NCBI GenBank assembly: GCA_963786955.1 | Contig: CAWBAT010000004.1 | Coordinates: 128,001 to 192,000 of the forward strand | Direction of reading: 5' to 3' | DNA length: 64,000 nt | From: an uncultured Acidimicrobiia bacterium | Lineage (GTDB): Bacteria; Acidobacteriota; Terriglobia; Versatilivoradales; Versatilivoraceae | Shown: piece after piece, positions 34,442-47,570 of the stretch | Layout of the letters: every line of letters starts with the position of its first letter | How positions within the stretch are numbered: the first letter of the stretch is position 1 | Program-made: the position numbers and the translations under genes | Notes under the pieces: generated by a model | Database searches by the model: none | Told to the model about the DNA's origin: nothing | What the model saw: the letters and a program-made list of their open reading frames with translations, nothing else

Positions 34442-35482
34442 TTATTCCTCGCCCTTGGTTTTGATCTGGGCCATTTGCTGAAGAATCCGCTGGTTTTCAG
34501 ACGAATCTGGATGCAATCGTAAGAATTCCTCCAATTCCCGAAGCGCTGAATCCGATTGACTCATTCGCTGATATATACCGGCCAGAACCAGCTGCGGTTG
34601 AGAATAATGCAACGGATCGATCTGCTTTGCGCGGATCAAATAGCCGACAGCCTGGTCGTCCTCGTGAAGCGCCACATAATTCAATCCAAGCAGCGCATTG
34701 GCCATCGCATCGAAAGACTGCGAGTGAAGTGCTTTGAGGTTGTAAGGCAGGGCTTCTTCAGGTTTTCCCTCAGAAAGCAAGGTCTCGCCAAGATTCACCA
34801 GAGGTTCGTAAGCTTTCGGGTCTTCCTCTAAAGCTCGGCGAAAAGTCTCTTCTGCCTTGGCATAGTCTTTTCGAAAGAAATAAACCGTGCCGAGGCGATT
34901 CAATGCCGTGATGAATCGCGGCGCCAACCGGATGGCCTCTTCGAGATGATGAATCCCGTTTTCAATTTGGCCTTTAAGCAATGCCTCATCGGCGTGGGCA
35001 TATTCGTTTTGTGCTTTGGGAGGAACGGCCAATTCCATCCACGAAACAACCTGTGGTTTGTTTCTGATTGAATTAAAGGAGCGAGGATTCAGAATAATGA
35101 CCTTGATGATTCGCCCTTTCTCATCGGCATTGGCAGGATTGATTTCCAAAGTCATGCGCTGCTCTGCCCGCTTGTTCACCTCTGCCACGAGCGTATACGA
35201 GCCTGCCTCCAGATTGCGGAAGCGAAAACTCCCGCAAAGATCAGTCCAGCCGGAAGAAGAATAAGGGTGCAAGTTCCCCGTTAAGCCGACAAAAGCGTAG
35301 GCCTTTTTGGAATTCTGTTCAGTGCCGATTCGAATTTCTCCAAAGAGCTCGAACCTTGTGGGGACGGAGGCAGGCTTCAATTTAGCCTCCGCTGCAAAGG
35401 AGGTTTGGAAAGTATTCAACATCCCCAGCGCAAGGAAAAGAAACTGGAGTTTGATAAATCTCGATGTAGCATTGCCATCCAT
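34442..35482 (-). CDS. exported TPR protein with N-terminal carboxypeptidase-regulatory-like domain
   Basis: Signal peptide, G.FRFRNL.AG.Y beta domain, tandem TPR helices; start uncertain. Confidence 0.8.
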   Translation of the reverse strand: MDGNATSRFIKLQFLFLALGMLNTFQTSFAAEAKLKPASVPTRFELFGEIRIGTEQNSKKAYAFVGLTGNLHPYSSSGWTDLCGSFRFRNLEAGSYTLVAEVNKRAEQRMTLEINPANADEKGRIIKVIILNPRSFNSIRNKPQVVSWMELAVPPKAQNEYAHADEALLKGQIENGIHHLEEAIRLAPRFITALNRLGTVYFFRKDYAKAEETFRRALEEDPKAYEPLVNLGETLLSEGKPEEALPYNLKALHSQSFDAMANALLGLNYVALHEDDQAVGYLIRAKQIDPLHYSQPQLVLAGIYQRMSQSDSALRELEEFLRLHPDSSENQRILQQMAQIKTKGEE

Positions 35483-35611
35483 GGAATCACCGTGGAGGAC
35501 GAAATTTGCCCGATAGTTATCTAAATTACCCTCGATATTGTTATATTTTATCATCCTCCAAAAATCCTGCAAGGGAAACAAATTAATCGTATCGGGTTAT
35601 TTTCCGGTGAC

Positions 35612-35763
35612 CCGCGGGTGGCGAAGACATCGTTTTGTGATGTCTTCGATTTTTTTACGAAATCAGCTCTTCCGATTGCACACGGAAAGCCCGCAGAGAA
35701 AACGTATTGGTGTTGGCAAGGACGCTGATGCATGGCACTGGGCCGAGCAAGTTCAGGCATCTC
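35612..35763 (+). repeat. repeat module A, copy 1
   Basis: Direct repeat of 37648-37797; begins with the GGGTGGCGAAGACATC-N-GATGTCTTCGA hairpin. Confidence 0.9.
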
Positions 35764-36079
35764 AGTCGTGTCACTTTCTCCTTCCAAAGATGAATTAATT
35801 TAAGCCTTGCTTCACCATACTTAAATCCTAAAGGCAGTCACTTGGGTGGACTGAATGGAGATCGAACAAAATCGTTAATAATTGAAACAGCGTCAGGTAT
35901 ACTTTGTCCGTCCCGAATACCAAAAGCGAGTTCTCGATGAAAGCGAGCTGCTACCCAATTGGAGCACTACCGAGGCGGCAAAGACAAAAGAACGAGAAAC
36001 GCTTTCCCACAGGGGATATCTATGCTCTCATCTGCCAAGTTGGTAGATCAGAGTGAATGCATTAAATGAGGAGTCACGA

Positions 36080-37534
36080 ATGAAGAGATACAAGGCCGGT
36101 CTCATCATGCCCCACCCCGAAGACCAGAAGTGGGATAGCGTTTGGAAGATTTTCCGGTTTCCCAATCTGAATCTACCGACCCTTGCCGCGCTCATGCCTC
36201 AGGAGGAATGGGACATCGAGATTCAAGATGAGTTGGTGGGTCCGCTTAACTTCGAGCGCGATTATGACCTTGTCCTGATCAGCGTCACAACTTCTGTAGC
36301 AATCAAGTCCTACGAGGTAGCGCGGATCTTTCGCGCGAACGGCGCCACGGTCGTACTGGGAGGAATTCATCCGTCTGCGCTTCCGGAAGAGGCGGCCCAG
36401 CACGCGGATGCAGTGGTGATCGGCGAAGCGGAACTAACCTTGCCGCGCCTGCTCGACGATTTCAAAGAGGGACGGCTTGAAACTTTCTACCGAATGCCCG
36501 GAATGGTGGGGACATGGGACCAGAAGTTGCCTCGCTGGGATCTTTTGGACTCGAAGGGGTACCTGTTCCGCGAGTCCATGACTGCTACACGCGGCTGCAA
36601 CTACCGCTGCACGTTTTGCTCGATTCATCTGGCTTTGGGCGGGGGGGAGTACGGTTACCGAAAGCGTCCGCCCCAGGAAATCGCCCGGATTGTCGAGGGC
36701 ATCGAGGGGTCGTTCGTCATGTTTTGGGATGATGATCTGTTGTCCGAACCGCGCTATACGGCAGATCTCTGCCGGGAGCTGAAACCCCTGAAGAAGCACT
36801 GGATGAGTCAGATGAGCGCCACGTACGCTGCCCAACATCCCGAGGTGCTCAAGCTGCTCTCTGAAAGCGGATGCACGGCAATGTTCATGGGCCTGGAATC
36901 CATCAGTCAGGGCTCGCTCAAGTCAGTCAACAAGCAGAACAACGCAGCGCAATACGAGGAAACGCTCCGGCGCATACATGACAACGGCATCGACATTCAT
37001 GCCGGGTTCGTCTCCGGTCTTGACCACGAGGATGTCCACAGCTTCGAACAGACCGTCGAGTGGGCGAATCGGGTCGGACTGTGTGGCGCGATTTTCCGGA
37101 TCCTCACTCCCTATCCGGGAACAAGGCAATTTGAGGAACTCAGGGCCGCCGGCCGCCTCCTGACCACAGATTGGACCAGCTACAGCGGCGAGCACGTGGT
37201 TTTCCGACCGCTCAAAATGAGCGTTGAAGAGCTATACTGGGGGCACAAGTGGGCTAAGCGCCAGTTCTATTCATTTCGGTCGATCGGGGAGCGCGCTGTC
37301 CGGCGCGCCAAGATCCATGGGCCGGGGGAACTGTTGAACACCTTTGGCGTAGGGATGGGCTACCGCGCCATGTTCCATCTTCCCATTGAGGATCTACCCG
37401 TGAATGTGTACAGGGACAAAGGACACCTACCGCCTCAGCCTCAGCCTATCCCATACCGGTTTCCTTATCCTCCCGTGAATAATCTGAAACTGTCGATCAT
37501 GAACCGTCTCTCTGACTTGGTTCCATTCGGGTAA
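36080..37534 (+). CDS. cobalamin-binding radical SAM protein
   Basis: B12-binding domain (VVLGGIHPSALPEEA, VVIGEAE), CNYRCTFC, LTPYPGT; RBS GAGGAG before ATG 36080. Confidence 0.93.
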   Translation: MKRYKAGLIMPHPEDQKWDSVWKIFRFPNLNLPTLAALMPQEEWDIEIQDELVGPLNFERDYDLVLISVTTSVAIKSYEVARIFRANGATVVLGGIHPSALPEEAAQHADAVVIGEAELTLPRLLDDFKEGRLETFYRMPGMVGTWDQKLPRWDLLDSKGYLFRESMTATRGCNYRCTFCSIHLALGGGEYGYRKRPPQEIARIVEGIEGSFVMFWDDDLLSEPRYTADLCRELKPLKKHWMSQMSATYAAQHPEVLKLLSESGCTAMFMGLESISQGSLKSVNKQNNAAQYEETLRRIHDNGIDIHAGFVSGLDHEDVHSFEQTVEWANRVGLCGAIFRILTPYPGTRQFEELRAAGRLLTTDWTSYSGEHVVFRPLKMSVEELYWGHKWAKRQFYSFRSIGERAVRRAKIHGPGELLNTFGVGMGYRAMFHLPIEDLPVNVYRDKGHLPPQPQPIPYRFPYPPVNNLKLSIMNRLSDLVPFG

Positions 37535-37647
37535 GCTATGTCGTGCTCTTCATAGCATTGCTTCCTCCGACTGGGACAAGAGCAGGGAAATGGGGTCATG
37601 ACTCGATATTAGATTCTGCTGCAAAACCCATCCTGATAGGCTAAAAA

Positions 37648-37797
37648 CCGCGGGTGGCGAAGACATCGTTTTGCGATGTCTTCGATTCTTTTACGAAATC
37701 AGCTCTTCCGATTGCACACGGAAAGCCGCCGAGAAACCTATTGGCGTTGGCAAGGACGCTGATGCATGGCACTGGGTCGGGCAAGTCCAGGCATCTC
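37648..37797 (+). repeat. repeat module A, copy 2
   Basis: Direct repeat of 35612-35763. Confidence 0.9.
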
Positions 37798-37829
37798 TGA
37801 AATGTCAAGCCACCCTCTTTCATGAAAAA

Positions 37830-38099
37830 AACGGCAGGAAATCTGCACCTACGCGACTTCTCAAGAAATAGAGTGAATTATTTCCCATTGCTGATGAATC
37901 ATACCCGCTCAATGCCGCATAAAATCAGGGGGGTTGCGGCAGAATCCGATGTCAAACCTGAGCCCCCTCTCTTCCCTGTTTCCTCATTTCTCTTACATAA
38001 AGCTGCTGCTTCGAAGACATGCAAATGACGCATGTCTTCGCCACCCGCCCATCTTGCTTCTCAGTTCTTGAATAATGAGATGTGGTGACCCCTTTTTTC
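37830..38099 (+). repeat. repeat module B, copy 1
   Basis: About 270-bp direct repeat of 41741-42007; contains the inverted REP hairpin at 38010-38046 and ends TGACCCCTTTTTTC. Confidence 0.92.
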
Positions 38100-38289
38100 T
38101 CCTTTTTCCTATCCGGCGAACAGTTCGGGCAGGGTTTCGGCGATGGCGTCCATCTCGCAAGCGAAATAACTATCGGGTGGATGTGAAAATGGCCTGTGCC
38201 GGCGATTTTATGTGGCAGACCGGCGCGGTCGGTTGCTATAATTTATAGCCTCGAATGAGACCGGCGTAGCGAAACACCCTGAAGAAGCC

Positions 38290-38319
38290 TTGACTTGTGG
38301 CTTTGTAAGCAAATATTCT
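38290..38319 (+). promoter_or_regulatory. possible sigma70 promoter of the propeller-mbnH-mbnP operon
   Basis: TTGACT-N18-TATTCT. Confidence 0.3.
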
Positions 38320-38425
38320 TTTTCAGATAAACCCGACGCAAGAGTCATTCCGCCTTGAACCACCCAGCGTCATGTAAAAGCGGGCGCATGAAAAACGAAT
38401 CCTATCAGTTCATTATTGGAGGTCC

Positions 38426-39754
38426 ATGATGACCCAATCGACAAAGCTCAGATTCTTTCCCCTGTACGCCCTGCTCCTGCTGATGTTGCCAGGGTGTTCC
38501 GACAAGCGGGAGGGCGGCGCCGCTCGCCGCAATGTCGAAGAGAGCCAGGCCCTGGTGCTGCTGCGTGGCCTGCCCACACTCGGCACCACCCACAGCGTCG
38601 CCATCGTCGAACTGAACCCGGACGCGGCGAATTTCGGTGCGATACTACAGGAGTTCGAACTTCCGAACCTCGCGTTCCCAATGCACCACCTTTACTACAG
38701 CCCTAACGGGCGGCTGTACTCGACCGGTCTTGACCCCAAGTGCAGCCTGGCCGAAATTGGCCTGTCGCGCAACGCCAACGGGGCCGCAGTGATCAACGGC
38801 GTCAAATGCCTCGATACCGGCGGTCAACAGGTCGGTGAAGACATCATCTGGCACAGCGTCAACGGCAAGGAATACATGTTCGTGACCTTCATGGGTGGCA
38901 CTGGCGTGGACCAGCCCGACTGCGGCTCGGTCGGCGTGTTCGATCCGCAGACTAATGCAGTTATCAAGATCGTCCAGGCGCGCAAGAGCGTTGTGGCCAA
39001 GGGTGCGCCATACATCATGTACCCGCACGGCATATCGGCGTACCAGGATCGCATGGTGCTTGGCTCTGCGGTTCACCCGGATCTCAAGACCGGCGTCGGT
39101 GATGCGATTGCCGTCATCGACCTGAACACCTTCGAGCCGATCCAGAACATCGTCGTCCAAGACGCGAAGCCGGTGGGCTTTCCATCGTCGCCGGTCGAAG
39201 TACTTTTTGTGCGACCCAGCATCGTGCCGGGCGTCGCGCCGGCCGTGCTGGTCAATACGATGTTCGGATTTGAAGTCTGGAAGATCCCGTACAACGAGGC
39301 GGACAAGAGTTTCGGCGTCCCCGTGAAGTTATACGACGGGGCGAAAGCGGGCACCGGAGTCCCACTCGAGTTCTATGGTAACGCGACCGAGTTGTTCGTC
39401 AGCCACGCTCTGCCGGGCGTCGTGAAGCGCTATAAACTCTCGGGCCTGCCTGAACTCGTTCCCTCGGGCGCGGACATCAAAGCCGAGGTGGGTGCGCACC
39501 ATATGATCTTTTTCACCACCGCCGCTGGCCGCAAGGTCATTGCAATACAGAACAACCTGCTGAATCTCGGCAACAAGGCCGACAACGATCCGACCGATGT
39601 CGATTTCATCGCCAAGCTCAACGCGCATTCGATCACCGTGCACGACCTGCAGAGCGGTGAGCTCATCGCAAAGGTCAACTTCAAGGAGCGCTACAAGAAG
39701 GGCGTCGAGAACATCGAGGCGCTGTTCGGCTCCGGCTTCGTGCACCACCATTGA
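38426..39754 (+). CDS. His-motif beta-propeller-like lipoprotein, unknown function
   Basis: Lipobox LPGC; repeated blade-like motifs (SVGVFDP.TN..IK, AIAVIDLNT); MHHLYYSP, YPHGIS, GAHHMIF, C-terminal VHHH. Confidence 0.75.
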   Translation: MMTQSTKLRFFPLYALLLLMLPGCSDKREGGAARRNVEESQALVLLRGLPTLGTTHSVAIVELNPDAANFGAILQEFELPNLAFPMHHLYYSPNGRLYSTGLDPKCSLAEIGLSRNANGAAVINGVKCLDTGGQQVGEDIIWHSVNGKEYMFVTFMGGTGVDQPDCGSVGVFDPQTNAVIKIVQARKSVVAKGAPYIMYPHGISAYQDRMVLGSAVHPDLKTGVGDAIAVIDLNTFEPIQNIVVQDAKPVGFPSSPVEVLFVRPSIVPGVAPAVLVNTMFGFEVWKIPYNEADKSFGVPVKLYDGAKAGTGVPLEFYGNATELFVSHALPGVVKRYKLSGLPELVPSGADIKAEVGAHHMIFFTTAAGRKVIAIQNNLLNLGNKADNDPTDVDFIAKLNAHSITVHDLQSGELIAKVNFKERYKKGVENIEALFGSGFVHHH

Positions 39755-39759
39755 CGTCT

Positions 39760-40888
39760 ATGCTGCGCTTGCAAGGTGTTGTTGCTGCGGCGGCGTTGAT
39801 CGCCGCGCTGCTCGCAGCAATGGCAACAGGAGGCCTGCAATAAAGAGCGTCGGGCAGCGACCCCGCTATCCGGTTTCTCGGCGCCGTTCGTGTTCGGTCA
39901 CTTCCAGGTGCCCGCCGACAACCCGCTGACCAAGGAATCGGTGGAGCTCGGCCGGCGGCTCTTCTACGATCCACGCTTGTCGGCTAACGGTAAAGTGTCC
40001 TGCGCGACCTGTCATATCCAGCGCCTGGCCTTCACCGATGGCCGTGTCACCAGTGTCGGCGTATCCGGCAAGTCGCTGGCGTTCAACAGTATGAGCCTGG
40101 CCAACCTGATGTGGGGTCCACAGCACTTCTTCTGGAACGGGCGCGCCGCCACGCTGGAGGAGCAGGCGCTGATCCCGATCCAGCATCCGGATGAAATGGC
40201 GCAGGACCTGGGGCGACTGGTTGCCGAACTCTCCACCGATGCCAGCTACCGGGAAATGTTCGAAACGGCTTACGGCGAAGTCAGCGTGGCAGCAATCGCC
40301 CGTGCGCTGGCTTCATTCGAACGCACCTTGATCTCGTCCAATTCGCGCTACGACCAGTTCCTGCGCGGCGAGATCACACTGAATCCGCAGGAGGAACTGG
40401 GACGCAAGCTGTTCATGGCCCACCCGGACGTCAAAGTGAGTCTGCGCGGCGCCAACTGCATAGACTGTCACAGCCAGTTCCTAACCGGCGGCTTCAGTAC
40501 GCGCTACGACGGCTTCTCCAACAATGGCCTCGATGACGAGGACCACCTGCGGCCCGGCCTGCAGGTGGTCACTGGCAACCCGACACATCGCGGGCTGTTC
40601 AAGGTACCGTCGTTGCGGAACGTTGCGCTCACCGCGCCCTATATGCACGATGGCCGTTTCAAGACGCTCGAGGAGGTGCTGGATCACTACGACAGCGGGA
40701 TCAGGAACAGCAGCACACTTAGCTCCCTGATCGTGGAGGCCGACAACCGCGGCGGGGCGGCGGCAGGACGGATCAGCCTGCATCTGACGGCAACAGAGAA
40801 GGCGGCCATCATCACCTTCCTGCGCACGCTGACGGACCAGGATTTCGTGAGCGCAGAAAAGTTCTCCGATCCATTCGCGCGCAAGTGA
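39760..40888 (+). CDS. mbnH: MbnH-like di-heme enzyme (bCcP/MauG superfamily), frameshift after the signal peptide
   Basis: CATCH and CIDCH, FFWNGRA, FKVPSLRNVALTAPYMHDG; signal-peptide ORF 39760-39843 is one base out of frame with the catalytic ORF. Confidence 0.85.
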
Positions 40889-41661
40889 ATCGCATGCATA
40901 GAGCAAAGTACGTCATACCGATCCTGTTCGCGCTGGCCGCGATACTCAGCATCACAGGCTGGTGGCTATACCGCGCAGCGCAGCCGATTGAACTGGCACT
41001 GTACTTTCATCCGTTCGTCGGTCCGGAGCCGCTGGTGCTCAACGAATCGCGCTATCCCAATCCGGGTGGCGAGGGTCGTTTCAAGGTGCGCGATTTCCAG
41101 TTTTTTCTCAGCAACATCCGGCTAACGGGCGGTAACGGCGTGTACATCGAACCCGACAGTTATCACCTGGTGCGATTCGACGGCACCGAACCCGCCTTTG
41201 GCATCGTGCTGCACGACGTGCCGCGCCGGGACTACCAGCGGATCGAGTTTGGCATCGGCGTGGATGCCGCCGCCAACAAGTCGCTTGCGCAACGCGGAGA
41301 CCTGGACCCCAACGGCCGCATGGCCTGGAACTGGGAGGTCGGTTACAAATTCGTGCTGTTCGAAGGCACACTGGTGCGCGGAAACGAGAGCGTTCCGCTC
41401 GTCTATCACGTTGGATTCGAGGAGAACTACCGGCTCATCGCGACCGAGTTGCACCGCGAGCCACTGGGCCACCGCCCCGCGCGGCTGGATTTCCGGGTCG
41501 ATATCCTGCGCCTCTTCCAGGGTTCTACAACCGTCGACATGGTGGCGCTACCCAGTGTGAAGTTCGATCGGGCCGACGCGGCGCTGCTCGCGCGCAATTT
41601 TGCCACCATGGTCAAGCCGATGTGGCCTGGTGCAGCCGGTCAACCCGACGGGGTCCGTTGA
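40885..41661 (+). CDS. mbnP: MbnP family copper-binding protein
   Basis: FFLSNIRL, FGIGVD...N, MAWNWEVGYKF (WxW motif), VYHVG; overlaps the mbnH stop. Confidence 0.85.
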   Translation: MNRMHRAKYVIPILFALAAILSITGWWLYRAAQPIELALYFHPFVGPEPLVLNESRYPNPGGEGRFKVRDFQFFLSNIRLTGGNGVYIEPDSYHLVRFDGTEPAFGIVLHDVPRRDYQRIEFGIGVDAAANKSLAQRGDLDPNGRMAWNWEVGYKFVLFEGTLVRGNESVPLVYHVGFEENYRLIATELHREPLGHRPARLDFRVDILRLFQGSTTVDMVALPSVKFDRADAALLARNFATMVKPMWPGAAGQPDGVR

Positions 41662-41740
41662 TTCTGCCGCGTCTCGTGCATCACGCCTCCTCGAAACACG
41701 CCGAAGTCGCGGTGCCGTCGCTGGCCAATTGGGAGAAGGG

Positions 41741-42007
41741 AACGGCAGAAAATCTGCACCTACACAACTTCTCAAGAAATAGAGTGAATTATTTCCCATT
41801 GTTAATGAATCATACCCGCTCAATGCCGCATAAAATCAGGGGGTTCGCGGCAGAATCCGATGTCAAGACTGAGCCCCTTCTCTTCCCTCTTCTCTCATTT
41901 CTCTTATATGAGGCAGCTGCTTCGAAGACATGCAAATGACGCATGTCTTCGCCACCTACCCATCTTGCTCCTCATTTCTTGAATAATGAAATGTGACCCC
42001 TTTTTTC
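41741..42007 (+). repeat. repeat module B, copy 2
   Basis: Direct repeat of 37830-38099; REP hairpin at 41921-41956. Confidence 0.92.
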
Positions 42008-42141
42008 CTTTAAATCCTTGGACGCAGTGAGCCAAGATTATCTTAGTGGTTAGGGGAGCCACCGAGCCGCTGTTGCATGATGACGTGAGCTCGTTTCAGA
42101 TCTTTGCCAACCCTCAAACCGCCCACCGAAGCGGGTTCCTG

Positions 42142-44628
42142 CTAATTGGCTCTTTGAAATTCGATGTCGTCATCGACCTGAATGGAGTCTGCTAACGCTT
42201 TGCCATTCGCATTGGCCAACTCGGCTTTAGCTTCGAATTTCTCGGTATACATCTGCGAATCGGCGACGGTAAAGAGGTGATTGAGGTCCGTTCCATCGTG
42301 AGGATACATTGAGATGCCGACGCTGATTCCGAGTCGTACTTCTTTTCCAGATCTTACCTTGAGCAACAAGGAATGAATCGATTTTCGAATACGGCTGGCA
42401 ATCTTCTCAGCAGTTTCACGTTCCGCGTTATACAGGAAGGCCACGAATTCGTCACCCGCGTAGCGAATACACGTGTCGTATTTGCGCATTTCTTTTTGCA
42501 GCACTTCACTCACCTTGACCAGAACATCGTCCCCTACTTTGTGGCCATATTGGTCATTAATTTCTTTGAATCGGTTCAGGTCCATGACGAGAATGGCCAT
42601 TTTTTCTTTGCTGCGTTCGGCTTTCTTAACGTTCTGGTCAAATGCCATAAACATGTAGCGTGAATTGGGTAGCCCGGTGAGTGGATCGGTCAGCGAATTC
42701 TCTTCGAAGTATTCGAACGAAATCGCATTTTGGATGGCGACGGCAGCCCGCTCGCTGATGGTCTCCATTAACCGGGAATGATCTTCCGTAAAAGGTTCGT
42801 TGTCACGATCGGTAGAGTACAGGGCAATCGCTCCCAGGACCGTATTCTTTGCCGTGAGCGGAAAAATCATGGCGTTGGTCAGTTGATGGGGTTTTTCCAT
42901 AAAGGCCAGGTTCTTGAAATCATTCGTTGGGTCGTTATTGACGACAGGCTGGTTGAAGGCGATGGAATAACCCGTCAGACCCTCCCCTAACGCCATCCAG
43001 TTCTGACTTAACTGCTCGGAGTATTCTCCCGTGACCATGGCCGGGTAGATCATGTCGGTCTTCTTGTTCTTCAAGTAAACAACGCTGCTGGTGAAGGGAA
43101 CAATCGACTGCAGCTTGCTACAGATAATGCGCAGCGTGTCGTCCAAATTCAAGCTCTTCCCTACGGTTTGAAAGATCTCGTGCAAGGCGTAAATCTCGCG
43201 ATGCGTCGAGGCGATTTCCGTGAAGCCTTTCTTCCGCAACAAGAGTTTTTGATCCTCGGCGGAGTCCGGTGAGGTCTCGGAGAGATGCGTGTTGTTCCCG
43301 TATTTGCTGATGTCAAGCATGGCCACTTCTTCCATCAGCTCTTTAGAGACACGCAGGAAGGCAGCCACGACTTTTGCGTCATAGTGCATCCCCGATTCGT
43401 TCTTCAGCAGGTCGATGGCTTCCGCGGATGTCAGGGGTGTCCGGTAGGTTCGCTGGGCGGTTAAGGCATCAAACGTATCGGCTACGGCCAGGATTTTGGA
43501 TCCGATGGGAATCTGGTCGCCCTTCAGCCCATACGGATACCCCGATCCATTTTCCCGCTCGTGATGGTAACGGATCATCGGCACCACCGGGTAAGGGAAG
43601 TGAATGGGCTCCAGGATGTTGGCTCCGATCTCAACGTGACGCGTCATTTTAGCAAATTCGGAATCCGTCAAACTTCCCGGCTTTGAAAGGATATATTCGG
43701 GTATGGCAAGCTTGCCGATGTCGTGCAGCAGTGCAGCGGCTCTGAGAGCATCCAGATCGTCGCTATTCTCGATCCCCATGCTCTTAGCGATCCCGACTGC
43801 GTAAACCTGGACTCTTCGTGCGTGTCCGTGAGTGGAATGATCCTTGGCATCGATGGCCAGCGCCAGGGTTTCAATAATCGACATCTGTAACTGGGAATGT
43901 TCCTTGAGTTGGCGCGAGGCTTCAACGAGACGGGAAGAATAGACCTTGTAGGTAGAAAGGGCAAACAGGGAGAAAGGAACAAAGAGTAAGTAGATTTGAT
44001 TTCCCAGGGCTCCGGCAAAGAAATTCAGTAAGCCAACGGCGACCGAAACGGACAAGAAAACCAGGCTGGGAACTCTGTACTCTTTCTTCCATTCCTCGCC
44101 AAGACTGGCCCCTCTGAATATCTTTGCAGCGGTAACCCGAAACAAGGAATAGCAGAGATAATAACCCGTCACCACCAGAATGATGGGCAGTAAGGAACCA
44201 TACCGAGCAATCTCGCTCAAGGAATTATTCAGAATAAAGACTTTACCCATCAGCCACAAGGCAGCCAGGCTTGAAAGGGCATCAGGCAATTTCTCCACCA
44301 GCTTCATCTTGGAAATTCGATAGGTCCGGAACAGCCACCAACTAAACGCGACCATTGCGACTAGATTGGCATTGGATGGACCAATCCAAAAGAAGGTGCC
44401 GAGATAGATGAGGTGATAATAACGAAGCTGTTTGCCAACAAATGGCAGCATGACGCTGGATTCGGCAAAGGAAAAAGCCAGAACGACCGCAAACATTGCC
44501 AGCAGGCTCCAATCTTCGCGACAAGTTAATGATTCCCAGAGGAATAGGACTGCGAGCGCTGCGACGCTGAGAAAGATCGTGCGGCCCTGATGTTTCTTGG
44601 GGGAGGTCGTGTCCGCTGTAATTAGCAT
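42142..44628 (-). CDS. membrane HD-GYP + GAF + GGDEF c-di-GMP enzyme
   Basis: TM N-terminus, LHDIGK, HHERENGSGYP, GAF, TDPLTGLPN, RYAGDEF. Confidence 0.93.
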   Translation of the reverse strand: MLITADTTSPKKHQGRTIFLSVAALAVLFLWESLTCREDWSLLAMFAVVLAFSFAESSVMLPFVGKQLRYYHLIYLGTFFWIGPSNANLVAMVAFSWWLFRTYRISKMKLVEKLPDALSSLAALWLMGKVFILNNSLSEIARYGSLLPIILVVTGYYLCYSLFRVTAAKIFRGASLGEEWKKEYRVPSLVFLSVSVAVGLLNFFAGALGNQIYLLFVPFSLFALSTYKVYSSRLVEASRQLKEHSQLQMSIIETLALAIDAKDHSTHGHARRVQVYAVGIAKSMGIENSDDLDALRAAALLHDIGKLAIPEYILSKPGSLTDSEFAKMTRHVEIGANILEPIHFPYPVVPMIRYHHERENGSGYPYGLKGDQIPIGSKILAVADTFDALTAQRTYRTPLTSAEAIDLLKNESGMHYDAKVVAAFLRVSKELMEEVAMLDISKYGNNTHLSETSPDSAEDQKLLLRKKGFTEIASTHREIYALHEIFQTVGKSLNLDDTLRIICSKLQSIVPFTSSVVYLKNKKTDMIYPAMVTGEYSEQLSQNWMALGEGLTGYSIAFNQPVVNNDPTNDFKNLAFMEKPHQLTNAMIFPLTAKNTVLGAIALYSTDRDNEPFTEDHSRLMETISERAAVAIQNAISFEYFEENSLTDPLTGLPNSRYMFMAFDQNVKKAERSKEKMAILVMDLNRFKEINDQYGHKVGDDVLVKVSEVLQKEMRKYDTCIRYAGDEFVAFLYNAERETAEKIASRIRKSIHSLLLKVRSGKEVRLGISVGISMYPHDGTDLNHLFTVADSQMYTEKFEAKAELANANGKALADSIQVDDDIEFQRAN

Positions 44629-45944
44629 GTAGGCTCCGAATTCACTTCAGTTTCTGCAATCGAACACACCCGATTTCGCCCGGTTCTCTTGGCTTGGTAC
44701 AAGTACGCGTCTGCCTTCTCAATGAGTTCTTTTTGAATGACGTCCAGATCGATCTGATTATCTAAAGAGGTTTCTTGGACACCGATACTGACCGTGATGG
44801 GATCCCCCGCTTCTGTGGCAAATGTTTCACTGACCAGCTTGCGGATCCCGTCCATGATCTTATGAGCCACATCCAACTTGGTGTTGGGTAAGATCACCAC
44901 GAACTCCTCGCCTCCATAGCGAGCGATGACAGAACCTTTTCTCAGGTTCGTGCTCAAAACGAAACCAAGTTTGCAGAGAACTTTGTCTCCAGCTGCATGT
45001 CCGAAGGTGTCATTGACCTTCTTGAAATAGTCGATGTCCAACAGAGCCAAACTAACGGGGAACTTCTGCTGGCGTGCATTGGAGAGTTCAACCCGCATGC
45101 GTTCTTCAAAAAACCTTCGGTTGTATACGTTCGTCAACTTGTCCGTGATGGCCATGGTCTGCATGGCGCTAAATTGACGCGCATTGCTAAGAGCTACCGC
45201 AATATGCCCGGATACCGTATAGAAGAGAGTCTTTTCAGATTCTGTCCAAGCAACGCCCTTGGTGCATCGATGAACCACAATGATTCCGATCAGCTCTGAC
45301 TTATAGAGAAGGGGGAATGCCATGATGCCGTGAATCTTGAACTCATCGAGGACCGTTTCATGGGCGGAGAGGGAAGGCGCGCCGAGAGTCTCGTCAATGG
45401 CAACGGGTTCCATTCCATTCGAAACCATTTTCAGAAGGAGAAAGTTCAATTTGGCTGTTTTCTGGGCTGAGCAGGAACTTGTTCCTTCGGCACAGGATTC
45501 GAAATACTTGGCTACGGGTTTTTCTTTCCCTAAGGAAATAATGACGCAGCGGTCTGCCGGGATGTGTTGGACCAATTGTTGGGCCGAGTTCTTTAAAATG
45601 TCGCCTAACTCGTTGGATTCATAAACCATCTTGATAATGGCGTCGGTCTTTTCCACTTGCTTCCGCCGAGCCTGAACCTCAACTTCCTCAACGGTCCCTT
45701 TGTTTGAGGAACGTTCATCTGCCAATTGGGCGGAAATCAAAGCAATCTCCCGGGCAATTTCGTTGGCTCGGTCAAATTTGCCGGTACGCCGATAGATGTC
45801 TTCAAGGCTTTGTTTGGCAGGCAGATAACGTGGGTAGCGTTCTAGCGCATCTTCCAAAAGCTCAATGGCTTTGGCATACGATTGATACTTGATGTAAAGT
45901 TCCGTTTCTACCATCAGATCTAAGACTTCGTTTTCGTATGTCAT
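44622..45944 (-). CDS. TPR-like + GAF + GGDEF diguanylate cyclase
   Basis: TDKLTNVYNRR, DIDYFKKVNDTFGH, RYGGEEF; ATG 45944 preferred. Confidence 0.92.
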   Translation of the reverse strand: MTYENEVLDLMVETELYIKYQSYAKAIELLEDALERYPRYLPAKQSLEDIYRRTGKFDRANEIAREIALISAQLADERSSNKGTVEEVEVQARRKQVEKTDAIIKMVYESNELGDILKNSAQQLVQHIPADRCVIISLGKEKPVAKYFESCAEGTSSCSAQKTAKLNFLLLKMVSNGMEPVAIDETLGAPSLSAHETVLDEFKIHGIMAFPLLYKSELIGIIVVHRCTKGVAWTESEKTLFYTVSGHIAVALSNARQFSAMQTMAITDKLTNVYNRRFFEERMRVELSNARQQKFPVSLALLDIDYFKKVNDTFGHAAGDKVLCKLGFVLSTNLRKGSVIARYGGEEFVVILPNTKLDVAHKIMDGIRKLVSETFATEAGDPITVSIGVQETSLDNQIDLDVIQKELIEKADAYLYQAKRTGRNRVCSIAETEVNSEPTC

Positions 45945-46370
45945 CTCTGCTGTCCTCACGTTATCTCTCCTCAAAATCTCTTTGCCAGTTGCCCTGCCTC
46001 GATCAACCGGACACCCATTGAATAGCATATGGCCTGCCAAAAATAACTTGTTTATTACCTATAACTTGATAACAACAAAGATGAAATCGGTCACTTCTGA
46101 TCGGACAAATTGTCCGAAAAGCGACCGCCCGGGAGTCTGGGCTACTTCCTACAAATGGGGATGAAGAGATTAATTAAGGAAAGGCTTGAAGTGTTAGAGG
46201 GCACGGGTTCGCCCGGCAAGATAACCGACTGAAGCTCTACGGCGTTGCTGAATCTTTCCTTGGGAAATACCTGGGTGGCCGCGCCGAGCCGCCCTCGGAA
46301 GCAGGGAAAGTTGACGACCTCCACAAGTAGTATGATGGCGCCAAGAAGTAGGGGGAGGAGTGTTGTTTCT

Positions 46371-47570
46371 TCAAAAGGAACTCTGGTTCAGATATTTTTT
46401 CTTCAGAACCTTCATTCCCTCTTTCCAATTCTCGTTGATGCCCACTTGGCAGACAGGAACTGTCGGAAGGACGTGCTTCGTAATCTTAGGAAAGCTATCG
46501 TGGTAGCGGAATTGAGGGCCCACAAAGTAAAGTAATGGAGGATGAGGACTCAACACGAGACCGGGGAAGTAGCCATTTTTTTGAAACTCTCCTCGCTCTT
46601 GGTGCCATCTTACCCTGAGCCAATAATCCAGGCCCTGCAGCGGCAATTCAATATCCTCACTCACCTTTAATTCCAGAATAGCCAATCTTCCCTGTTTCGT
46701 TACGCTCAGGATATCGATCATCCCTCGATCACCTGCTAGGAATGCCGGGACCTGAGGATAAACAAATCGGTTGTTCAGGGCGGGATCGATGGCGCTGATG
46801 TCCTCTAAAATTACTCTTTGAAGCAATCGTTCTGCAGATCCGCAAAAGCCTTGGCGCTCGAAACCTTCCGTTAAGGATCGAGTGTGATGAACACGAGTCA
46901 AGGCAGTGTCGAGATTGCCACAATCGGATAATTCCACAAAGCGGAGAGAAGCTCGAGCGACATCCATTTCCATCAATAGAATCTGACGGCCGGCGCCAGA
47001 AATCCAAGCCAGGCGGCTCCCCAGTACGAGGGCCCTCCCCGCAGGGGCGATGAGGATCAGCTTGACCGGTTTGGCGGGCTTTCGCTCCCGAACGTATTCT
47101 CTCCACAGCAAACCATGACTCAGCAAGCCGTCAATGTTTGCCTGACTTTCGTGCGGCCCCGCAGCAATGGCGTGCAATTGGCTCGTCCCTGAATTAAAAA
47201 TGACCCGGACATATTTCCCTGAGATGGGATACGTTAGATTTGAGGCAGTACTGGATTTGAGAATTGAGGCCCGAGGAAAGTTGTGCCTGATCAGATGAGT
47301 CAGAGTCTCTTGAAATTGATGACGCAGGGCTCTCATGGAGCGGGCTGAGCCATCTTCTTTTGTTTTTTGCAGGCTGCGCTCACCAAGAAGCGGGTAAGAG
47401 GATGGTCTGCCCCCTTCCGATGCGAGGGTCCCGCCCCGTTTGCGTTCCTGGTTATGACGTGTAGCTTTTGGGAGACGGTTTTTTCTAGGATCCATTCGAC
47501 CCCTTTTCCCTTGACCACTTAAAAGGAATCTTGTTATACAGAGAAAGTGTTTTGAGATACTTTCCAACAT
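46371..47570 (-). CDS. hypothetical protein with C-terminal PD-(D/E)XK nuclease-like motif
   Basis: IDILSVTKQGRLAILELKVSED..LPLQGLDYW; true start probably downstream of 47570. Confidence 0.6.
   Translation of the reverse strand: MLESISKHFLCITRFLLSGQGKRGRMDPRKNRLPKATRHNQERKRGGTLASEGGRPSSYPLLGERSLQKTKEDGSARSMRALRHQFQETLTHLIRHNFPRASILKSSTASNLTYPISGKYVRVIFNSGTSQLHAIAAGPHESQANIDGLLSHGLLWREYVRERKPAKPVKLILIAPAGRALVLGSRLAWISGAGRQILLMEMDVARASLRFVELSDCGNLDTALTRVHHTRSLTEGFERQGFCGSAERLLQRVILEDISAIDPALNNRFVYPQVPAFLAGDRGMIDILSVTKQGRLAILELKVSEDIELPLQGLDYWLRVRWHQERGEFQKNGYFPGLVLSPHPPLLYFVGPQFRYHDSFPKITKHVLPTVPVCQVGINENWKEGMKVLKKKYLNQSSF

Follow-up and report, generated by a model that had tools for sequence, protein, structure and literature searches.

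What do MbnH and MbnP do when they are encoded away from methanobactin genes? This question is raised by a 64,000-nucleotide stretch of DNA (hereafter the window) from an uncultured Acidimicrobiia bacterium (GenBank assembly GCA_963786955.1, contig CAWBAT010000004.1, positions 128,001 to 192,000 of the forward strand), in which genes for an MbnH-type di-haem enzyme and an MbnP-family protein directly follow a gene for a propeller lipoprotein. We find that the three genes are a conserved, horizontally mobile and self-contained cassette, and that their products probably form a periplasmic metalloenzyme with its own maturation pair. A more specific interpretation, to which our analysis gives about an even chance, is that the cassette encodes a copper-dependent oxidase of the periplasm, with MbnH and MbnP carrying out its maturation. 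The cassette ties together two problems, namely the role of MbnP and MbnH outside methanobactin operons and the active site and maturation of SBP56/methanethiol oxidase proteins.

All three genes lie on the forward strand. The first (38426..39754) is a 442-amino-acid (aa) open reading frame encoding the propeller lipoprotein, which has a lipobox LPGC (Cys24), the motifs M86-H87-H88, Y199-P200-H201-G202 and A357-H358-H359, a terminal HHH (H440-442), and only two tryptophans (W142 and W285). Its stop codon is followed after 5 nt by an ATG at 39760. The second gene encodes the body of the di-haem enzyme (39797..40888), with the haem motifs CATCH and CIDCH. The frame is open from 39797 and includes a lipobox Cys codon at 39836, whereas the gene as called covers 39890-40888 (332 aa), GTG 39890 being the first usual start codon. 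The third gene (40885..41661, 258 aa) overlaps the second by 4 nt and encodes a membrane-anchored MbnP-family protein with the motif MAWNW at residues 146-150. G+C content is 0.60-0.617 over 38500-41499 and 0.46-0.53 in most flanking 1-kb segments, the exception being 0.56-0.58 over a radical-SAM gene (36000-37499). An initial annotation of this DNA had already pointed to the tight coupling of the three genes, to their higher G+C content, and to the full set of motifs, including the two CXXCH and the two Trp, and all of these features are present (G+C ~0.61 in the block versus ~0.50 in the flanks). It had also remarked on missing methanobactin genes and a missing TonB receptor, which our searches bear out. 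Within ~10 kb of the cassette, the DNA carries neither a gene for a TonB-dependent receptor nor a copper gene, and the genome (93% complete) has no match to the MbnB family (PF05114). With neither of these components, the locus does not qualify as a methanobactin operon (MbnA, MbnB, MbnC and the TonB-dependent MbnT).

A scan of genomes located 63 propeller loci whose products share 54-89% identity with the window protein (L009 and the locus of the congeneric genome G002 are one and were counted once). Their record labels comprise Acidobacteriota, Binatia, Gemmatimonadota, Verrucomicrobiota, Limnocylindrales, Acidimicrobiia, Bifidobacteriaceae (the label of a metagenome-assembled genome), and many Alpha- and Gammaproteobacteria, including Ruegeria, Leisingera, Kordiimonas, Sneathiella, Vibrio sagamiensis, Alteromonas, Colwellia and Bowmanella. 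By tblastn, MbnH is encoded downstream of the propeller in 57 of the 63 loci and MbnP in 55. Six of the eight loci lacking MbnP are contig ends (L008, L023, L036, L041, L046 and L057), and the other two have been disrupted by mobile elements, with a prophage terminase inserted downstream in L043 and an IS240-type transposase truncating the propeller gene in L045. The full triad is therefore found in 55 of the 57 loci that can be judged, covering at least seven phyla, although one of the 55 (L063) holds decayed remnants only. This is the co-occurrence that the initial annotation had proposed to look for. No shared neighbor emerges from the flanks of 31 loci, where no TonB receptor is encoded and no copper gene recurs. 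Isolated neighbors there are CDF transporters near L038 and L042 and an Nramp protein near L059.

Narrower groups of genomes give further counts. In the genus of genome G041, 21 of 70 genomes encode the propeller, and it is these 21 that also encode a cassette-type MbnP, with the two genes sharing contigs, although these genomes are kin and the figures are counts rather than statistics. In G252 and G258, propeller and MbnP genes are both degraded. Among 201 genomes sampled at the family level around G041, a cassette-type MbnP is found in G041 only, apart from one weak match, a count that bears on occurrence and not on linkage. Among the window's genome and 40 relatives (41 in total), the propeller is present only in the window's genome and in G002. 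Members of the propeller family from different phyla are 65-91% identical, which is strong conservation, and the family is present in sediment and soil sequence libraries. This conservation and occurrence suggest an ecologically important function, perhaps in the cycling of sulfur or copper. Decayed cassettes, in which propeller and MbnP genes have together shrunk to fragments, are located at L063, G252:C2:124183-126353 and G258:C12:702892-703408, the last being an apparent fusion by deletion. G266 carries an extra, more divergent MbnP of the cassette type (G266:C36:196971-197627, 41% identical to the query, E 5.5e-54) away from its single propeller gene.

What kind of protein is the propeller? 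The gene 1 product has no Pfam or NCBIfam match even at E<=10, and a phmmer search of the PDB returned nothing usable. At E<=1e-3, its homologues number 891 or more; the 120 top-scoring ones are 76-91% identical to it, all unnamed or called 'hypothetical', and none has a Pfam domain. A protein-atlas search likewise returned hypothetical proteins only, with an SBP56 share of 10%. HMMER over 1.84 billion cluster representatives gave 120 clusters at E<=1e-3 and 22 at E<=1e-30, many of them fragments. Judged by these searches, the family is tight and stands isolated in sequence space. An AlphaFold model built with 42 sequences (predicted local distance difference test, pLDDT, 90.2; predicted template modelling score, pTM, 0.87) is a seven-bladed propeller. 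A structure search against representative folds identifies the SBP56 protein 2ece of Sulfolobus tokodaii as the best structural match (Z 30.8; root-mean-square deviation 3.5 Å over 360 residues), and Foldseek, which the initial annotation had recommended, likewise ranks it first (E 2.7e-10).

Sequence comparisons lead to the same relatives. A profile of the family matches 2ece by hmmsearch (E 3.5e-5) via the segment AIVDLDPxSxxFGxIL...P(L/M)HH, and 26 of 42 family members match PF05694 at E<=1, with only P0151 exceeding the cut-off (34.7 versus 34 bits). Moreover, hhalign against four canonical SBP56 proteins from Ruegeria genomes gives a probability of 96.3% (E 1.9e-9, 306 columns). Because of these three lines of matches, we regard gene 1 as encoding a divergent branch of the SBP56/methanethiol-oxidase superfamily that falls outside the current Pfam model. 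The analogy to methanethiol oxidase drawn in the initial annotation thus reflects a real, if distant, homology.

The residues held constant in this family are also informative. In 24 diverse sequences (29-91% identical), H87, H88, E138, D139, D173, H201, E258, P313, L314, H358, H359 and Q375 are among the invariant residues, and the terminal His is nearly invariant. Among 177 core-family sequences, H87 (176), H88 (175), H201, H217, H327, H358, H359, H440-442, W142 and W285 are each present in 175-177, HHH is the C-terminal end in 175, and 98% identity or more is reached in 150 of 403 columns. In the model, the conserved residues fall on the first strands of successive blades: H87 and H88 on blade 2, E138 and D139 on blade 3, H201 on blade 4, E258 on blade 5, P313, L314 and the nearly invariant E315 on blade 6, and H358 and H359 on blade 7. 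The HHH tail comes after the inner strand of the closing blade. The first strand of a propeller blade is the innermost and lines the central channel. By this strand order, the invariant His, Glu and Asp residues are predicted to line the channel. The initial annotation would have given up its proposal had the His motifs proved unconserved or scattered; H87, H88, H201, H358 and H359 are conserved to the extent given above and are predicted to sit on the innermost strands.

Placement of these residues can be compared with what is described for SBP56 proteins. In human SELENBP1, mutation of any of the six cavity residues His73, His74, His137, His140, Asp189 and Glu252 abolishes thiol oxidase activity (PMC10362175), and His89, His90, His140 and His412 are the proposed copper ligands of the Hyphomicrobium methanethiol oxidase (PMC5739008). 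The hhalign alignment equates H87/H88 of our propeller with the SBP56 HH pair (SELENBP1 His73/His74; Hyphomicrobium His89/His90), E258 with SELENBP1 Glu252, and a GED segment with the invariant GAE of SBP56.

The two partner genes are more easily recognized. The gene 2 product matches the Pfam family CCP_MauG (PF03150, 9.7e-60) and, with its two CXXCH motifs and a gene that sits beside that of an MbnP, it has the hallmarks of an MbnH. Its di-haem body (residues 6-329) is closest to PDB entry 6e1c, a 'Di-heme enzyme' (E 2.7e-63), which we take to be the structure of the M. trichosporium MbnH. Canonical peroxidases score ~1e-41 or weaker, MauG ~1e-29, and BthA (6NX0) 1.6e-12. The gene 3 product matches the Pfam family MbnP (PF20243, 1.1e-37, 130.2 bits against a cut-off of 27), and H94, M146, W148, W150 and H175 are invariant across 26 cassette copies. 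Its model (pLDDT 89) has an N-terminal helix at residues 3-31, and all six of its fold matches at E<=1e-3 are chains of 7l6g, the MbnP of Methylosinus trichosporium (E 6e-8, template modelling score 0.54). At the sequence level, the two have only the MAWNW segment in common, which is identical. All three cassette proteins carry a membrane tether, either a lipobox or an N-terminal anchor.

From the observed gene anatomy, homologies, residue conservation, linkage and mobility, we infer copper as the metal, the direction of its transfer, catalysis, and the nature of the substrate. The propeller would be a membrane-tethered periplasmic lipoprotein with a cavity formed by His87, His88, Glu138, Asp139, His201, Glu258, His358 and His359 plus the HHH tail. 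This cavity would most likely be a copper site that oxidizes a small substrate, for which a thiol is a guess from family resemblance only. The characterized MbnP acquires its copper site when MbnH turns a Trp of a WxW motif into kynurenine, with His, Met and a solvent ligand completing the site (PMC11951088). By analogy, the MbnH-type enzyme of the cassette would oxidize a Trp of MAWNW to kynurenine, and this would create the MbnP copper site. MbnP might then pass copper, and perhaps electrons, to the propeller, and in doing so would take the place that SCO1/SenC has in the parallel mtoX-SCO1/senC-mauG operon (PMC5739008).

It is tempting to go further and to speculate that the MbnH/MbnP pair has an obligate client here, a new SBP56-like propeller oxidase for which MbnP is the dedicated copper donor or electron partner in place of SCO1. 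This system would have passed from phylum to phylum in soils, sediments and sea water, and its enzyme may oxidize a volatile thiol or a related small molecule. We hold this bolder version only tentatively and consider it rather unlikely as a whole. If true, it would represent a new type of cuproenzyme maturation system with MbnP in SCO1's place. Carriers of the cassette include cultured Ruegeria, Leisingera, Alteromonas and Vibrio, which opens the idea of a specific client for MbnP to genetics and protein chemistry. In Vibrio sagamiensis (L010, 3359-5167), a 603-aa pyridoxal phosphate enzyme of Cys/Met metabolism is encoded directly upstream of the propeller, beside an AsnC-type regulator. This single locus provides a weak hint at sulfur amino-acid or thiol metabolism.

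Comparison with known systems reveals both kinship and differences. The propeller shares with SBP56/methanethiol oxidase (MtoX and human SELENBP1; PF05694) its seven blades, its best structural match, detectable sequence homology, an HH pair on blade 2, and a Glu on blade 5, the latter two being essential in SELENBP1 (PMC10362175). Unlike these proteins, it lacks the CSSC motif and the C-terminal Cys, adds the invariant H201, H358/H359 and HHH tail, and is a lipoprotein. In the mtoX operon, too, a MauG-like di-haem enzyme is encoded together with a copper-binding protein of the periplasm (PMC5739008), although the copper partner in the cassette is MbnP rather than SCO1/SenC. A canonical SBP56 is encoded alongside the cassette in two of the five cassette-bearing genomes tested, and therefore the two are not interchangeable; none was found in the window's genome, at 93% completeness. 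Like MbnP/MbnH pairs (TIGR04052/TIGR04039), the cassette has a di-haem enzyme adjacent to its partner protein, an MbnP fold, and the relationships to 7l6g and 6e1c described above. However, its order is H then P, after the propeller, its proteins are membrane-anchored, and it lacks the TonB-dependent transporter (near the cassette in the window and in the 31 loci) and the methanobactin genes (in the genome). MbnP/MbnH pairs usually adjoin such transporters (PMC3621798). MauG and methylamine dehydrogenase offer another likeness, since there too a MauG-family di-haem enzyme stands beside a seven-bladed propeller and a small Trp-bearing client, but no sequence kinship of propeller or MbnP to the dehydrogenase subunits was seen and there is no mau operon. 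The CuZ domain of nitrous-oxide reductase and thiocyanate dehydrogenase are likewise seven-bladed with a His-lined central metal cluster (Z 22.9 and 22.4, respectively). However, they rank far below SBP56 proteins and lactonases and give no sequence signal, and the resemblance is one of principle only. A literature search found no paper joining MbnP/MbnH with a propeller or a selenium-binding protein, although many subscription papers were beyond its reach.

Diverged relatives of the propeller, ~30% identical to the window protein, form a sister clade. Several of these proteins are fused to DUF1264 (L085 691-2505; L090 1158-4634; P0146, P0151, P0162 and P0181), and those of L090 and P0162 additionally carry a plastocyanin/azurin domain. 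This cupredoxin fusion supports a redox role for the propeller family. The fusions also tie DUF1264 to this family.

Several findings weigh against a copper-dependent oxidase matured by MbnH and MbnP. Lactonase-type propellers are nearly equal to 2ece in the fold search (Z 27-29 versus 30.8), and for that reason the fold by itself does not decide; it is sequence that decides for SBP56. Even so, the window propeller itself has no PF05694 match even at E<=10. The SBP56 HXXH (SELENBP1 His137/His140) lies in an insertion that is gapped in the propeller family and has no counterpart there, SELENBP1 Asp189 aligns with Pro200, beside His201, and the AHH pair aligns with GPQM. Therefore, the site is not the methanethiol-oxidase site, and neither metal nor substrate can be transferred from it. 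The propeller site appears instead to have the same location as that of SBP56 and partly the same residues, but to have been rebuilt. With regard to the partners, both fall under the NCBIfam equivalog cut-offs, with gene 2 scoring 275.5 bits (5.5e-82) against 362.85 for the 'MbnH family' TIGR04039 and gene 3 scoring 39.2 bits against 140 for TIGR04052. The four-Cys motif for which canonical MbnP is named is missing, and no Cys is invariant in the 26 copies. In the sister clade, tblastn found no MbnH or MbnP nearby in any of eight metagenome loci, most of which are short (more than 1 kb of flank in four of the eight), and the MbnH/MbnP link therefore seems to belong to the core clade only. Finally, MbnH is frameshifted in the window's genome.

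Given these reservations, other functions for the cassette deserve attention. One is that the propeller captures or stores copper rather than performing catalysis, by binding copper, either as such or in a chelate, at the surface of the membrane and exchanging it with MbnP, as a TonB-independent route of acquisition or buffering. MbnP/MbnH pairs otherwise occur in copper-uptake contexts beside TonB-dependent transporters (PMC3621798; PMC9426467), the ligand-capturing surface lipoprotein propellers BtuG and XusB are among the fold matches (Z ~24), and ten His are conserved in the core family. We nonetheless find this idea unlikely. Both profile and fold place the propeller closest to SBP56 enzymes rather than to BtuG, a Glu and an Asp are conserved beside the His on the inner strands in an active-site-like manner, the cupredoxin fusion of the sister clade points to electron transfer, and no transporter is linked in the 31 loci examined. 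Furthermore, the fraction of near-invariant columns would be extreme for a mere binding protein. Alternatively, the propeller itself might be the substrate of the di-haem enzyme, which would oxidize or cross-link W142 and/or W285 into a protein-derived cofactor, leaving MbnP as a second client or copper donor. W142 (177/177) and W285 (176/177) are the sole Trp of the window protein, W142 is predicted to lie on the inner strand of blade 3 beside E138 and D139, and mauG is linked to mtoX, with tryptophan tryptophylquinone (TTQ) having been proposed for methanethiol oxidase (PMC5739008). That cofactor is itself unproven, however, and human SELENBP1 produced in E. coli is active without MauG (PMC10362175). 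In addition, W285 falls just short of invariance across the wider family, whereas the known MbnH substrate is MbnP (PMC11951088) and MAWxW is invariant in the cassette MbnP. Modification of the propeller by MbnH therefore strikes us as quite improbable.

Perhaps MbnP is not a transient chaperone at all but, with its kynurenine-copper centre, serves the propeller as a stable subunit for redox or as a cofactor carrier. It would then resemble the small subunit that bears the cofactor on the propeller heavy chain of methylamine dehydrogenase, or replace the cupredoxin that is fused to the propeller in the sister clade. A two-subunit enzyme of this type would agree with that fusion, with the perfect co-occurrence and joint decay of the propeller and MbnP genes, and with the tethers on all three proteins, and MauG classically acts on the small subunit of a dehydrogenase that contains a propeller (PMC6405878). 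Against this putative complex, MbnP evolves much faster than the propeller (42-50% versus 65-72% identity in the marine clades), as would be expected of a partner in loose contact rather than of a tightly bound subunit. We view this possibility with the most doubt. The copper-dependent oxidase with MbnP as its donor thus remains our preferred interpretation. It retains from the initial annotation, which had proposed a periplasmic cuproenzyme or copper store loaded by MbnP, or a second substrate of the di-haem enzyme, the linkage, the His conservation, the inner-strand placement, and the kinship to methanethiol oxidase. That annotation had overlooked the MbnH frameshift, which bears on whether the cassette functions in this particular organism.

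The signal peptide and the haem domain of MbnH lie in different frames in the window, and the cause is one extra base, an A at 39831 (forward strand), identified by comparison with relatives. The orphaned signal-peptide frame (39760..39843, forward strand) runs for 27 codons and ends with TAA at 39841-39843. All seven aligned relatives lack the extra base (window CAGGAGGCC versus relatives CAGG-GGCC), and in them the signal peptide runs in frame via the lipobox Cys into a conserved ...TPLSGFSAPFVFG(H/R)F segment. The base is also absent from the congeneric G002. Elsewhere, the mbnH frame reaches at least 300 codons in 54 loci, and most of the printed N-termini show an in-frame hydrophobic segment (four rows are unreadable because of an over-extended frame). 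An export signal, on which c-type haem attachment depends, is thus out of frame in the window, and for this reason MbnH would be neither exportable nor haem-loadable as assembled. The extra base is either an assembly error or a recent inactivation.

Is the cassette in this genome, then, a recently inactivated remnant whose MbnH stays unexported and free of haem? We consider this a serious possibility, to which we lean slightly less than to its opposite. The extra base is unique to this assembly, comparison with G002 showed no other frameshifting indel in the window over ~12 kb of coding sequence on the flanks, and cassette decay is seen elsewhere (L063, L043, L045, G252 and G258). On the other side, the ratio of nonsynonymous to synonymous substitution rates (dN/dS) of mbnH is 0.145 versus G002 and 0.18 versus L006, and values for the propeller and MbnH range from 0.13 to 0.21, which also counts in favor of our main interpretation of the cassette. 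Such low values argue against long relaxed selection, and therefore the break, if real, is recent. A consensus error of one base is also conceivable in a genome of 9 contigs for which the best read run holds 0.30 of the sampled words, and similar one-base insertions that look like assembly errors are present in core genes of G002. The extra base is missing from all four environmental contigs that span the site (two from DNA and two from RNA libraries, one each). However, these contigs stem from relatives, being 90-99% alike, and are therefore silent on the status of the frameshift in the window's genome. RNA-library contigs of relatives cover all three cassette genes, although DNA carry-over is possible.

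Two ways of rescuing the MbnH product were considered and rejected. The insertion creates an AGGAGG just upstream of CAA-TAA, as might serve a programmed +1 frameshift, but the site is unique to this assembly, CAA does not re-pair after a +1 shift, and such a shift would bypass the lipobox Cys. A restart of translation at GTG 39890 would yield a cytoplasmic product without haem. As a separate observation, the G002 propeller gene is split into three frames by single-base insertions (L069, G002:C11; window-equivalent positions 38676 and 38777), and further such insertions interrupt two G002 core genes that are intact in the window (window-equivalent 49165 and 50264). These are probably consensus errors of the G002 assembly.

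How did the cassette reach this genome? The block common to the window and G002 (38258..41666, forward strand; 95.1% identity over 3412 columns) is likely the transferred unit. G002 holds the cassette at a different genomic site, with the rest of the 64-kb window unmatched in its 20-kb neighborhood there, and the flanks of the window's cassette map to other G002 contigs. The synonymous divergence (dS) between the window cassette and that of L006, which belongs to a different lineage by its record label, is 0.25-0.31, compared with 0.12-0.47 for core genes of congeners. A cassette dS no higher than that of some congener core genes points to recent transfer. The cassette is bracketed by two copies of a 255-nt direct repeat (37830..38084 and 41741..41995, both on the forward strand), which are 91% identical, 3911 nt apart, and the sole full-length copies in the genome. 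A repeat core of ~40-70 nt is dispersed in ~40 places of the genome, is found in G002 too, and resembles repetitive extragenic palindromes or miniature inverted-repeat transposable elements.

A larger surrounding stretch is also variable. The region 35347-46425, with a B12/radical-SAM gene, the cassette and two genes for GGDEF proteins, has no counterpart at the syntenic site in the congeneric G001, and in G002 it is rearranged, its GGDEF genes being on another contig. The B12/radical-SAM gene (36053-37534) was considered as a fourth partner and set aside, as it has no tblastn match in the 63 loci. Other neighbors within ~10 kb are a solute symporter, histidine-biosynthesis genes, an EamA transporter, a TPR protein, and sugar-type oxidoreductases. 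No Rfam family was detected in 37400-42200. A promoter-like site (38290..38319, forward strand) lies inside the shared block, with TTGACT, a 16-18-nt spacer and AATATT/TATTCT (9 of 12 matches). Such sites are not more numerous than in shuffled sequences, and the stretch is kept in both G002 and L006. Lastly, a group II intron reverse transcriptase/maturase (L009 13787-15178) is encoded ~3.5 kb downstream of the G002 cassette.

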